Assembly (NCBI GenBank): GCA_944391405.1
Contig: CALXTN010000005.1
Location: 1,515 to 65,514, forward strand
From: an uncultured Alphaproteobacteria bacterium
GTDB taxonomy: Bacteria; Pseudomonadota; Alphaproteobacteria; RF32; CAG-239
DNA length: 64,000 nucleotides
Reading direction: 5' to 3'
How positions within the stretch are numbered: the stretch's first letter is position 1; every line of letters begins with the position of its first letter. The notes beneath the pieces were generated by a model. It was not told the origin of the DNA. It was given only the letters and a program-made list of their open reading frames with translations, and made no database searches. Made by a program: the position numbers and the translations under genes. Positions 17,406 to 50,101 of this stretch are shown in pieces.

Positions 17406-17481
17406 GGTCCCATCGTCTAGAGGCCTAGGACGCGGCCCTCTCAAGGCTGCAACACGGGTTCGAATCCCGTTGGGATCACCA
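17406..17481 (+). tRNA. tRNA-Glu (anticodon CUC) with encoded CCA
   Basis: Cloverleaf: acceptor GGTCCCA/TGGGATC; D-arm GTCT..GGAC; anticodon stem CGGCC/GGCTG with loop CTCTCAA; T-arm ACGGG-TTCGAAT-CCCGT. Closely resembles E. coli tRNA-Glu apart from the anticodon. Confidence 0.85.
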
Positions 17482-46492: not shown

Positions 46493-46775
46493 TTTTTATA
46501 CTCCATCAAATTTTATCCGTCAAATATAATATAGATTGATATTATATAGGTCAACCTTTTTTAATGAAAAAAAAGGAGAAGTTTTTTAAAAAACTGTTAG
46601 TAAAATCTTTAAAAATATTGTGAGGGGGGTTATTGACTTCCTAAAAAAAAAAAATCGTTTTAATTTTAATATGATATAAAAAAATAAAAAAAAATGAAGA
46701 GGGATATCTTGTCAAAATAGATGTTTTTTTTATGATGAGGCTTGTTATCGAATTTGAGATTGAAAAGTATTTTTT

Positions 46776-46822
46776 ACTATATTTAGTGTATTTTTACGGT
46801 TTGTTAACACAATATGTAGTAT
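46776..46822 (+). promoter_or_regulatory. Tandem NrdR-box-like sites upstream of nrdD
   Basis: ACTATATTTAGTGTAT (46776..46791) and ACACAATATGTAGTAT (46807..46822), 31 bp apart; both resemble the NrdR box consensus acaCwAtATaTwGtgt. Confidence 0.45.
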
Positions 46823-46882: not shown

Positions 46883-48943
46883 ATGGCAAATAATGAGTTG
46901 CAAATGCCCGCGGCAAAAAAATATAAAATGCCGTTTAAAAGTATAACCAAAAGAGATGGTACTCTTGCTGATTTTGATGGTGATAAAATTTATAACGCAA
47001 TTTTAAGAGCCGGTGAAATTACGAACGAGTTTGATAATGATGATGCTTGGCTTTTAACAGCTCAAGTGATGAAAATTTTGTCTCATAAGTTTGATGAGTC
47101 TCTGCCTTCAGTTGAGGATATTCAAGATGTGGTTGAACAAGTTCTTATTTCTTCAAACTATTTTAAAACAGCTAAGTCTTATATCTTATATCGTGATAAG
47201 AGAAACAGAATGCGTGGAGATGGGAAGACTGTTATTGATGTTGAAAGCTCTGTTAATGAGTATTTGGAAAATTTGGACTGGCGTATTAAAGAGAATGCTA
47301 ATCAAGGATATTCCAACGGCGGGTTAATTTTGAATGTTTCCGGTAAAGTTACTGCCAACTACTGGCTGTCTCATGTTTATCCGGCTGAAGTTGGTGAAGC
47401 TCACAGAAATGGAGATATTCATATTCATGATTTGAGTATGTTGGCGGCTTATTGTGCCGGATGGTCTTTGAAAAATTTGTTGCGTGAAGGATTTAATGGT
47501 GTTCCTGGTAAGGTTGAAGCTGGCGCTCCGAAGCATCTTTCTTCTGCTATTGGACAGATGGTTAACTTTATGGGAACCTTGCAAAATGAATGGGCTGGTG
47601 CTCAAGCTTTTTCTTCTGTTGATACTTATTTGGCTCCGTATGTCAGAAAAGATAAGCTGAATTATGAGCAAGTAGAACAATGTATGCAAGAATTAATCTA
47701 TAATTTGAACGTTCCTTCTCGTTGGGGGTCTCAGACTCCATTTACAAACTTTACGTTTGATTGGGTTTGTCCTGAAGATTTGCGTGATCAACATCCAATT
47801 ATTGCTGGTGTTGAGCAGGATTATACCTACGGTGATTTAGGTGAAGAGATGGCTATGATTAACAAAGCTTACATCACGGTTATGATGGGTGGCGATGTTA
47901 AGGGAAGACCTTTCACTTTTCCAATTCCAACATATAATATGACTTGGGACTTTCCTTGGGAGGATGAAAATACTGAATTGTTATTTGAAATGACAGCTAA
48001 GTATGGGTTGCCTTATTTTCAGAATTTCTTGAACTCTTCTTTGAAGCCAGGTCAAATTCGTTCTATGTGCTGTCGTTTACAACTTGATTTGAGAGAACTT
48101 TTAGCTCGTGGTAATGGCTTATTTGGTTCTGCAGAACAAACCGGTTCTGTTGGGGTGGTTACAATTAACTGCGCAAGACTTGGTTATGTTTATAAAGGTA
48201 ATGAAGCAGCTTTGTTTGCCAGAGTTGATGAGTTGATGAATATTGCCAGAACTTCTTTGGAAATTAAGAGAAAAGTTATTCAACGTTTGATTGATAATGG
48301 GTTGTTCCCATTCACCAAGAGATATTTGGGCACTCTTCGTAATCACTTTTCTACTATTGGTGTCAATGGTATGAATGAAATGATTAGAAACTTTACTAAT
48401 GATGAACACAATATTGCAGATGCTTGGGGACAAGCTTTTGCTGAAAAATTCTTAGACTTTATTCGTGATAGATTAGTGAAGTTTCAAGAAGAGACTGGAC
48501 ATATGTATAACCTTGAAGCGACTCCGGCTGAAGGTGCAACAACAAGATTTGCAAGAGAAGATAAAAAACGTTATGTCGGTATTATTCAGGCGGGGACTCC
48601 TGAAGCTCCTTTCTATACAAACTCTTCTCAATTGCCGGTTGGTTATACAGATGATCCATTTGAGGCTTTGGATTTGCAAGCTAGATTGCAATCTAAGTAT
48701 ACAGGAGGTACCGTTCTTCACCTTTATATGAACCAACGTATATCCTCTGCAAAAGTTTGTCGTGACTTTATTAAAAAGGTTTTGGCTAATTATCGTTTGC
48801 CATATATCACGATTACACCGACATTCTCTGTTTGTCCAAAACATGGTTATATTGCCGGTGAACATGAATTCTGTCCGATTTGCGATCAAGAAAAGAAGGC
48901 AGAAAAGTTGAAAATGCTTGCAAAAAAGCAAGAAGTAGCGTAG
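46883..48943 (+). CDS. nrdD: Anaerobic ribonucleoside-triphosphate reductase (class III) catalytic subunit, lacking the C-terminal glycyl-radical motif
   Basis: N-terminal ATP-cone (FKSITKRDGTLADFDGDKIYNAI); NrdD core; a C-terminal Zn-ribbon-like SVCPKHGYIAGEHEFCPIC. It stops 19 aa later with no RVxGY/FNxGK motif. Confidence 0.85.
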   Translation: MANNELQMPAAKKYKMPFKSITKRDGTLADFDGDKIYNAILRAGEITNEFDNDDAWLLTAQVMKILSHKFDESLPSVEDIQDVVEQVLISSNYFKTAKSYILYRDKRNRMRGDGKTVIDVESSVNEYLENLDWRIKENANQGYSNGGLILNVSGKVTANYWLSHVYPAEVGEAHRNGDIHIHDLSMLAAYCAGWSLKNLLREGFNGVPGKVEAGAPKHLSSAIGQMVNFMGTLQNEWAGAQAFSSVDTYLAPYVRKDKLNYEQVEQCMQELIYNLNVPSRWGSQTPFTNFTFDWVCPEDLRDQHPIIAGVEQDYTYGDLGEEMAMINKAYITVMMGGDVKGRPFTFPIPTYNMTWDFPWEDENTELLFEMTAKYGLPYFQNFLNSSLKPGQIRSMCCRLQLDLRELLARGNGLFGSAEQTGSVGVVTINCARLGYVYKGNEAALFARVDELMNIARTSLEIKRKVIQRLIDNGLFPFTKRYLGTLRNHFSTIGVNGMNEMIRNFTNDEHNIADAWGQAFAEKFLDFIRDRLVKFQEETGHMYNLEATPAEGATTRFAREDKKRYVGIIQAGTPEAPFYTNSSQLPVGYTDDPFEALDLQARLQSKYTGGTVLHLYMNQRISSAKVCRDFIKKVLANYRLPYITITPTFSVCPKHGYIAGEHEFCPICDQEKKAEKLKMLAKKQEVA

Positions 48944-48971
48944 AATAGTATTATATTTGAAAGGGAGAAAA

Positions 48972-49202
48972 ATGAGCAATATTATTAATATTGAAGATGT
49001 TAAATTGGATGATTCCGAAAGACAACGTTGTGAAGTATATACCAGAGTTATGGGGTATATTCGTCCGACAACAGAATTCAATGTTGGTAAAAAGGGCGAA
49101 TACAATAGCAGATTATGCTTCTGTGAAGAAAAGGCTATTCAAGGTTGCGAAGCTCGTGAATGTGTTTGCAGTGCAGAAACAATGGCTTTGGCTGCAGAGT
49201 AA
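48972..49202 (+). CDS. Stand-alone NrdD glycyl-radical tail protein (76 aa) with a Cys-rich C-terminal extension
   Basis: MSNIINIEDVKLDDSERQRCEVYTRVMGYIRPTTEFNVGKKGEYNSRLCFCEEKAIQGCEARECVCSAETMALAAE. RVMGY plus FNVGKKGE matches the canonical NrdD C-terminus. RBS AAGGGAG; the reading frame differs from nrdD. Confidence 0.7.
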   Translation: MSNIINIEDVKLDDSERQRCEVYTRVMGYIRPTTEFNVGKKGEYNSRLCFCEEKAIQGCEARECVCSAETMALAAE

Positions 49203-49226
49203 TTCCTTGCTAAGAGGTGGGTGCTT

Positions 49227-49928
49227 ATGAACCCTATTAGAATCGGCGGTATTGAGAAATTCAGTATCGTCGATTTTCCAACTAAGATGTCCGCTGTTGT
49301 CTTTATGCAGGGATGTCCGTGGCGTTGTCCGTTTTGCCATAATACGCATCTTCAAGATATTAATGCTGATACGAATATTGTATGGCAAAAGTTTGTTGAT
49401 TTTCTTCAACATAGAAAAGGAATGTTGGATGCCGTTGTGTTTTCTGGCGGGGAACCGTTGGTTCAGGACGGCCTAATTGATGCGATTGAAGAAGTTAAGG
49501 CGTGGGGATATAAAATTGGTTTACATACCGGAGGATATCGTCCCGATAGATTTGCTGAGGTTTTAAAGCATGTTGATTGGGTGGGGTTTGATGTAAAGGC
49601 TCCATTTGATAAAGAAAAATATAAAGTTGTTACTGGTGGGTGGGGCGATGTTGATAAAGTCTTGGATAGCTTAAAAAAACTTATTGCATCAGGTATCACT
49701 TTTGAATGTCGAACGACTTGTGATCCTCGTTTCTTAACAGTTGATGATCTATATCAGATTGCAGATACTCTTAAAAGTATGGGGGTAAAAGAGTATTATT
49801 TGCAAAAATATCGTAAGGTTCCTTCTGATACGGATACTACTGAAAGTCAATGTTTGGCTTTGGTTGAAAATGAAGATTTGTTAAAGCACTTAAAAGCAAA
49901 TTTTGAAATTTTTGATGTGCGAAAATGA
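49227..49928 (+). CDS. nrdG: Anaerobic ribonucleotide reductase activating protein (radical SAM)
   Basis: CPWRCPFC (C-x3-C-x2-C) radical-SAM motif; 233 aa from MNPIRIGG with RBS GAGGTGGG. Confidence 0.85.
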   Translation: MNPIRIGGIEKFSIVDFPTKMSAVVFMQGCPWRCPFCHNTHLQDINADTNIVWQKFVDFLQHRKGMLDAVVFSGGEPLVQDGLIDAIEEVKAWGYKIGLHTGGYRPDRFAEVLKHVDWVGFDVKAPFDKEKYKVVTGGWGDVDKVLDSLKKLIASGITFECRTTCDPRFLTVDDLYQIADTLKSMGVKEYYLQKYRKVPSDTDTTESQCLALVENEDLLKHLKANFEIFDVRK

Positions 49929-50101
49929 TTTTACATTCAACGAGAAAAGAAGAAGCTCTAGAAGCTTCTTCTTTCTTTGTATCTGTTTATAATAAACGGA
50001 AAATGGCAAAAAAATAGGGGATAACCTTGGAATTTTTGCAAAAATTACTTGGTTAAAATTGCAGAGGTGCTATATTGAATCGTGCTTAAAATTTATTATA
50101 A

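Follow-up and report, generated by a model that had tools for sequence, protein, structure and literature searches.

The 64,000-nucleotide (nt) stretch of DNA analysed here, called the window, lies on contig CALXTN010000005.1 (GenBank assembly GCA_944391405.1) of an uncultured alphaproteobacterium and carries the genes of a class III (anaerobic) ribonucleotide reductase (RNR). Three genes follow one another on the forward strand: a large nrdD open reading frame (ORF) that ends before the glycyl-radical loop, a 76-codon gene that holds the loop motif, and the activase gene nrdG. The gap between nrdD and the small gene is 28 nt, and their frames differ (46883 mod 3 = 2 versus 48972 mod 3 = 0). 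The features of the three genes are:

46883..48943, + strand: nrdD, large subunit, 686 amino acids (aa); matches NF006126, TIGR02487 and PF13597
46940-47206, + strand: ATP-cone of the large chain, residues 20-108
47291-48904, + strand: NRDD barrel of the large chain, residues 137-674
48065-48076, + strand: MCCR motif of the large chain, residues 395-398
48833..48883, + strand: Zn-ribbon ligand segment CPKHGYIAGEHEFCPIC, wholly inside the large subunit
48884..48940, + strand: Lys-rich 19-residue tail of the large subunit, DQEKKAEKLKMLAKKQEVA
48961..48967, + strand: ribosome-binding site (RBS) AAGGGAG of the small gene, 4 nt 5' of its ATG
48972..49202, + strand: gene of the putative stand-alone glycyl-radical protein, 76 codons; matches Pfam NRDD
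Residues 1-15 of the small protein: N-terminal segment, acidic
49017-49112: core of the small protein, residues 16-47, with C20 and RVMGY; the Gly28 codon is 49053-49055
49113-49199: Cys-rich tail of the small protein, residues 48-76
49227..49928, + strand: nrdG, activase of the radical SAM family, NrdG2 type, 233 aa; matches TIGR02495

By whole-protein score the large ORF belongs to the NrdD family, with 1113.8 bits against NF006126 (cut-off 548; profile positions 3-653 of 684) and 468.9 bits against TIGR02487 (cut-off 326.35). Its match to Pfam NRDD (PF13597, E 1e-177) covers profile positions 1-534 of 562, and neither RVxGY nor any other radical-loop profile match was found in it by sequence, Pfam or NCBIfam, so that the radical loop is not on the same polypeptide. 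The frame closes with TAG at 48941-48943, 19 residues past SVCPKHGYIAGEHEFCPIC. The 120 closest homologues (83-98% identity, mostly 677-687 aa) all end alike, in ...CP.CD.E.KAEK... and a short tail, and RVxGY occurred in none of them.

The Zn motif of the large chain reads C-x2-H-x9-C-x2-C, and C651, H654, H661, C664 and C667 are invariant in the alignment of homologues. In Thermotoga maritima NrdD, Zn is bound by CxxxHx6CxxC in a ribbon that lies between the last barrel strand and the Gly621 loop, which dips into the barrel and meets the finger loop (PMC4493059). Because the ligand residues are invariant and placed like the T. maritima site, the Zn ribbon is, judged from the alignment, complete in the large chain and the split falls exactly at a domain boundary. 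The NrdDh4 group is marked by an MCCR variant of SCCR and a hydrophobic Phe in the finger-loop region (Aurelius et al. 2015, PMC4493059). Judged on these published motifs, the large ORF has both, as it contains IRSMCCRLQLD and GNGLFGSAEQTG, with the finger-loop Phe in GNGLFGS.

The part of the model absent from the large chain was matched by the small ORF, which aligned to Pfam NRDD at positions 531-561 of 562 (E 8.8e-7, 28.4 bits, gathering cut-off 26.2) and to NF006126 at positions 649-681 of 684. By these profile coordinates one NrdD model is tiled by the large and small ORFs together. The alignment puts Gly28 on Gly681 of Escherichia coli NrdD, the established radical site of that enzyme, and on the corresponding Gly of phage relatives with a fused chain; the small-family profile matched the C-terminus of a fused phage NrdD with an E-value of 5.5e-25. 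The core of the family follows L.D.ERQ.CE[VI][WY][TS]RVMGY[HFYI]RP...FN.GKK.E[FY]..R. C20 (49029-49031), which lies eight residues before the radical Gly, is shared by 291 of the 294 small proteins and by the fused relatives. A role for this residue in completing the Zn site was considered and dropped, as the large chain already has four ligands and the fused relatives keep the same Cys. An AlphaFold2 model of the small protein alone, built on a 150-sequence alignment, reached a pLDDT (predicted local distance difference test) of 81.3 and shows a beta-hairpin (23-26/29-32) that has Gly28 at the tip and, beyond it, three helices (38-46, 52-61 and 68-73). This model has the shape expected of a glycyl-radical finger.

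The initial annotation of this locus had given the ORF coordinates, the RBS, the 28-nt gap and the change of frame, all of which agree with the sequence and the ORF list. Its statements that the large subunit is without a radical loop of its own and that the small ORF is the NrdD loop were borne out by the ending of the NRDD match at position 534, by the above-cut-off match of the small ORF and by the placement of Gly28; the alignment to NrdD profiles that it had proposed gave the tiling described above. It had also placed a Zn ribbon in the large ORF, which is there, with a spacing of ten residues where nine are found.

The break point was compared with NrdD proteins of phages. A scan of viral contigs with the large-chain profile gave 64 loci, among which a hidden Markov model of the small family identified both fused and split architectures. 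Fused phage relatives (L112-L124, L111/L151, L144, L160 and L164) are 45-68% identical to the window large chain. Those of the L112 group (64-68%) read ...CPNHGYLAGEHFVCETCGEACEVWTRVMGYFRP... at the junction, and a single chain covers NRDD profile positions 2-561; L144, L160 and L164 are more distant fused forms (45-49%). An alignment of the fused phage forms, E. coli NrdD and both window ORFs located the break in an insertion. While the spacer from the CxxC of the Zn ribbon to the conserved Cys is 3 to about 13 residues in the fused relatives, the split form has about 31-35 extra residues there, with the stop and the start in the middle of the insertion, and the 19-residue tail of the large chain is its first half. 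Across 55 distinct pairs, the tails of the large chains are net basic in 82% and the N-termini of the small proteins are net acidic in 96%, a correlation only, which hints at an electrostatic aid to docking.

In a rough neighbour-joining tree of the barrel regions, which carries no support values, the distant fused phage forms are basal and the split forms, cellular and phage, fall into one large group with one fused phage clade nested inside. One old fission and one re-fusion, or several fissions, are possible histories. Some related phage NrdD genes contain inteins (L142:868-3759 and L160:3950-7141; Intein_splicing and LAGLIDADG_3), and the NrdD of L100:3391-5958 and L162 carries an insertion of about 170 aa that had no Pfam match.

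A search with the small ORF returned 32 clusters of stand-alone proteins of 49-98 aa, and a profile scan over one genome per species gave 323 confirmed matches, the best 80 of which include gut and rumen alphaproteobacterial metagenome-assembled genomes, Rhizomicrobium electricum, Sutterella, Duganella and Janthinobacterium. The order large gene, small gene and nrdG was found in at least 74 loci of independent assemblies, including some finished isolate genomes; the figure counts cellular loci from which both genes could be extracted. In all 74 the small gene has its own start codon and the partner NrdD is without the loop, and RBS-like sequences precede the small-gene ATG in other lineages too, at the junctions inspected. 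The distance between the two genes ranges from -13 nt (an overlap, in Duganella) to +260 nt (Sutterella massiliensis), and the relative frames are evenly spread (29, 23 and 22 loci). Among 34 distinct orthologues of the close clade, the ratio of nonsynonymous to synonymous substitution rates (dN/dS) of the small gene was 0.075, with 0.07 in the N-terminus, 0.06 in the core and 0.13 in the Cys-rich tail, values that are approximate since dS is about 1.3 and near saturation. The initial annotation had called the split natural, had pointed to extra linker residues on both pieces and had proposed a search of related genomes for a small ORF between nrdD and nrdG. The linker is indeed longer than in the fused relatives, the search found the same layout, and the small gene is under purifying selection.

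These comparisons bear on the simplest alternative, that the break comes from an indel in the sequencing or assembly, or from a nonsense or frameshift mutation of recent date, so that the gene is in truth a single fused nrdD or a pseudogene in decay. A single window is too little to exclude an indel, and one 80-aa protein from one NCBI contig (P0283) runs in frame from the Zn-ribbon end FCPKCDEEILARKR... into the radical domain. No other protein of this kind was seen among the best 120 of 567 matches of a search with P0283, which is either a re-fused gene fragment or the product of a miscalled start. The recurrence of the same break across independent assemblies, the variable gaps with a separate ATG for each small gene and RBS-like sequences where inspected, the low dN/dS in all three segments and the common end point of the 120 closest NrdD proteins all speak against a broken gene. 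On these comparative data the explanation is effectively refuted, with a negligible chance of being right.

The family is widespread in Alpha- and Betaproteobacteria as well as in phages and is not peculiar to the genome of the window. When 1.84 billion representative proteins were searched with the family profile, 4111 matches reached E<=1e-3 and 842 clusters reached E<=1e-10; all of the best 150 small-family matches are 49-152 aa long. Named sources are Alcaligenes faecalis, Herbaspirillum, Paracoccus, Martelella, Rhodopseudomonas palustris, Roseospirillum, Devosia, Blastochloris and Herminiimonas. On plasmids and megaplasmids, tblastn found 161 records, of which 132 are from Ralstonia, 7 from Bradyrhizobium, 5 from Cupriavidus and 4 from Paracoccus, the rest from others. 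RefSeq lists on pHG1 of Cupriavidus necator H16 a 676-aa "ribonucleoside triphosphate reductase", a 66-aa "nrdD anaerobic ribonucleoside-triphosphate reductase" and an activase; Ralstonia solanacearum OE1-1 has the same layout with the small gene annotated as "hypothetical protein". The genome paper of C. metallidurans CH34 gives NrdDG as Rmet_5137 and Rmet_5139, skipping the intervening gene, and reports that H16 requires the pHG1 nrdDG genes to grow by denitrification (PMC2864759), which lends indirect support to an enzyme that functions in vivo. One bacterial chromosome (L174:5001-5336, P0210) encodes a 111-aa member with a long Cys-containing N-terminal extension. Its neighbours are alaS and the genes of a pseudouridine synthase, TGT, an NTP transferase and antiporter subunits, and neither nrdD nor nrdG lies within 5 kb of it.

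In phages the small gene is less tied to nrdD. It follows nrdD directly at L128-L137 and L140, lies up to about 2 kb downstream at L125 and L126, and stands upstream of nrdD at L138/L139, L167 and L169. In at least 17 phage-like loci the small gene has neither an NrdD nor an NrdG gene of the window or E. coli type within up to 6 kb on each side, and L176 and L177 are two further phage-like contexts with the small gene alone in the local stretch. These counts cover the flanks and not whole contigs, so that an nrdD elsewhere in those genomes is possible. In L129, L130 and L137 only one in-frame TAG separates the two genes, and AGGAGG and an ATG follow directly after the stop. A candidate fusion of the small protein to NrdG (L060) was rejected, as a stop codon is present between them. 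The small genes L004:6001-6198, L176:5001-5171, L177:5001-5246 and L006:1131-1427 lie amid phage structural, lysis and replication genes, such as those of baseplate, lysozyme and DNA polymerase A, and no nrdD or nrdG was found in the surrounding stretch. With tblastn the small ORF had no match in the GenBank phage collection, although IMG/VR contigs contain many such genes.

The phage junctions are relevant to a second alternative, in which a programmed frameshift or stop readthrough produces a single fused NrdD. Genes that adjoin and sometimes overlap, as in Duganella, and the lone in-frame TAG of the three phages would suit such recoding. Against this, the frames are evenly distributed, gaps of up to 260 nt contain stops in every frame, in the in-frame phage cases an AGGAGG and an ATG come right past the stop, and in several phages the small gene is kilobases away from, or upstream of, nrdD. 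A conserved slippery site was not seen at the junctions inspected, for which no dedicated search was made. Recoding is therefore very unlikely, because of the variable gaps and frames, the RBS and ATG at the inspected junctions and the unlinked phage copies.

Beyond the core, the small protein of the window ends in a tail with Cys at residues 49, 51, 59, 64 and 66. All six Cys of the protein are present in nearly all of the 34 close-clade orthologues, while 53% of 294 family members have no tail Cys at all and 15% have CC or CxC. By sequence, the Cys-rich tail is thus lineage-specific and conserved only in the close gut clade; of what the initial annotation had said about it, the five Cys stood for that clade and did not hold for much of the family. 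In class I and II RNRs, C-terminal Cys pairs serve as redox shuttles, and by analogy with these a similar function of the tail is conceivable. The small proteins of the gut alphaproteobacterial clade end in [LIMV]AAE (49191-49199 in the window), an AAE end being found in 26 of 294 family members, and those of the Sutterella type end in CxC or CC and then Lys (CGCGK, CCGK, GCCAK). Both kinds of ending look like conserved C-terminal motifs.

The third gene scored 199.8 bits against TIGR02495 (cut-off 131.15) and matched PF04055 with an E-value of 2.8e-22. Of its two possible starts, the GTG at 49221 given in the ORF listing and the ATG at 49227 with GAGGTG ahead, the latter is more likely because the orthologues are also 233 aa long (L001-L003). 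Two further kinds of feature flank the three genes:

46774-46789 and 46807-46822, + strand: two NrdR-box-like 16-mers, TTACTATATTTAGTGT and ACACAATATGTAGTAT; consensus pattern match
49946..49974, + strand: terminator-like hairpin closing the unit of nrdD, small gene and nrdG; consensus match only

The pattern ACACWATATATWGTGT with up to 3 mismatches matched five times in the window against 1.76 expected, and the two matches listed, which adjoin each other at a distance of 33 bp, lie 60-110 nt upstream of nrdD. By the published consensus such 16-mers are candidate NrdR boxes; their position suggests that the nrdD operon may be controlled by the usual RNR repressor. The strong 3' hairpin has a 12-pair stem followed by a T-rich tail and begins 18 nt past the nrdG stop, and a terminator scan showed no such site between nrdD and the small gene. 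At the gathering score, Rfam matched nothing in the whole window but a tRNA gene at 17406-17478.

Taken as a whole, the catalytic component of this class III RNR probably consists of two polypeptides, both needed, with the radical domain supplied in trans. To our knowledge, every characterised NrdD has the glycyl-radical loop on the same chain, and the loop is likewise built into the catalytic chain of all other glycyl radical enzymes that have been characterised. From the gene content we strongly infer an enzyme that would need both of its chains. The large chain would give the ATP-cone, the ten-stranded barrel with the finger loop and the Zn ribbon, and the small protein the glycyl-radical loop. 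NrdG would abstract a hydrogen from Gly28 of the small protein, after which the radical-bearing beta-hairpin would dock in the barrel of the large chain at the site that the fused loop takes in the T. maritima and T4 enzymes, and the docked radical would initiate nucleotide reduction. Docking may be aided by charge, the large-chain tail being basic and the N-terminus of the small chain acidic. A likely benefit is that oxygen cleavage at the radical glycine would cost only a replaceable 8-kDa protein, and such cheap replacement would suit facultative denitrifiers and gut microaerophiles. Of all this, the anatomy of the genes, their homology, conservation and selection and their broad distribution are shown by the sequence comparisons, and trans activation, docking, the requirement for two chains and the benefit are inferred.

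Several points count against this two-chain enzyme. The small protein is known here from its genes and sequences, and the NrdD content was checked at the loci only, so that genomes with the split form may hold a second, fused NrdD elsewhere. Fold searches with the isolated small-protein model returned nothing significant, with YfiD (6OWR) in the Foldseek list only at a non-significant E-value of 6.7, and neither phmmer nor the family profile found an NrdD among the sequences of the Protein Data Bank with the small protein, the match being too short. The concatenated large and small chains, modelled with AlphaFold2 without an alignment, gave a pLDDT of 32.7 and an unusable structure. The near-saturated dS makes the dN/dS value approximate, and the pHG1 genetics are reported at second hand in the source (PMC2864759).

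Granted that the split is real, the small protein could still have another role than that of sole radical domain. It could be a spare part or regulator of the GrcA kind, in which case the large chain would get its radical otherwise or use another partner, for instance a fused NrdD encoded elsewhere. GrcA/YfiD sets a precedent as an autonomous glycyl-radical protein (PMC13450708), and small genes unlinked to nrdD, as on the L174 chromosome and in phages, fit a freely exchangeable part. The large chain, on the other side, has no RVxGY or other radical-loop profile match, and the small gene stands between nrdD and nrdG in the 74 paired cellular loci. We also know of no alternative radical source for the NrdD barrel. 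With no loop in the large chain for it to replace, the small protein is decidedly unlikely to be a spare part and nothing more.

Also unlikely, on our estimate, is a role as transient radical carrier, in which NrdG would charge the small protein at a distance from the reductase and the protein would then hand over the radical without becoming a stable subunit. Fused glycyl radical enzymes must flip the radical domain out to meet the activase (PMC12662201), a constraint from which a free domain escapes, and some phages have the small gene with no nrdD nearby. Set against a carrier are the surroundings of the Gly loop, which in fused enzymes are packed inside the barrel; their strong conservation in the small protein argues for the same buried docking. 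The present data fit a stable and a transient association equally.

An extension of the two-chain enzyme is offered here tentatively, as possible though rather doubtful. In it, the small protein would be a free and replaceable "radical cartridge" that turns over independently of the 78-kDa barrel, and would be the first radical domain of a glycyl radical enzyme that always acts in trans. Phages that bring in the small gene alone would use it during infection to recharge, or to gain control of, the loop-less host NrdD, and the Cys-rich tail of some lineages would add a second function, for example as a redox shuttle or a metal site.

How the buried Gly loop leaves the barrel to reach the activase is an open mechanistic problem. 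With a natural 8-kDa loop protein as a piece of its own, activation, docking and radical transfer could be examined on separable components and, if the assignment is true, the idea of a "spare part" would reach beyond formate lyases. The annotation and expression of class III RNR would change for Cupriavidus necator H16, Ralstonia solanacearum, Paracoccus, Bradyrhizobium, Rhodopseudomonas palustris and Alcaligenes faecalis. In such organisms the small gene is annotated as "NrdD" or "hypothetical protein", or there is no feature at the match, and the annotated large nrdD and nrdG alone would be expected to give an inactive enzyme. The phage copies that lack a neighbouring nrdD point to an auxiliary metabolic gene of a new kind.

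No description of a split class III RNR was found in the full-text literature or in the reviews and phylogenies of RNRs and glycyl radical enzymes, a search outside of which most subscription journals lie. In RefSeq many of the small ORFs already go by the name "anaerobic ribonucleoside-triphosphate reductase" or "NrdD", so that the similarity is in the databases and the two-chain arrangement seems to be undescribed.

The closest known systems are compared here in turn. The single-chain NrdDh enzymes of T. maritima (4COI and 4U3E) and N. bacilliformis share the family models NF006126, TIGR02487 and PF13597 with the window NrdD, as well as the MCCR motif, the finger-loop Phe, a Zn site of the Cys/His/Cys/Cys type (the metal site being predicted), an NrdG2-type activase and, in the window system as a whole, the Gly-loop motif CE[VI][WY][TS]RV[MV]GY.RP...N.GK. 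Unlike them, the window has the loop on a separate polypeptide, with the extra junction residues divided over both chains, and some split lineages have a Cys-rich tail past the loop.

A second parallel, drawn in the initial annotation, is that with pyruvate formate-lyase (PFL) and GrcA/YfiD, whose T4 homologue is Y06I. As in that system, a small autonomous protein that is essentially a glycyl-radical loop, here a 76-aa ORF with its own RBS and start, could serve a large barrel in trans, and phage copies exist. GrcA serves as a spare that is called on once oxygen has damaged an enzyme with a radical domain of its own, whereas the large chain of the window has no such domain, and none was kept by the partner in the 120 close homologues or the 74 paired loci. 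A Pfam scan at E<=1 matched the small ORF to PF13597 (NRDD) alone and not to PF01228, the PFL-type Gly_radical family. The parallel thus holds as one of function and, on these sequence matches, not as one of homology. According to a review of June 2026, spare-part proteins are known only for formate lyases (PMC13450708).

Within the RNRs, a class II enzyme is split as NrdJa/NrdJb (PMC9669993). Like the window system, its catalytic subunit is naturally encoded by two genes with a C-terminal functional module on the second chain; unlike it, NrdJa/NrdJb is B12-dependent, and NrdJb carries IscU-like and Zn-finger domains with redox cysteines and not a radical site. The fused phage NrdD relatives have the same Gly-loop sequence as the small ORF of the window, with no stop codon in between and the short spacer in place of the insertion.

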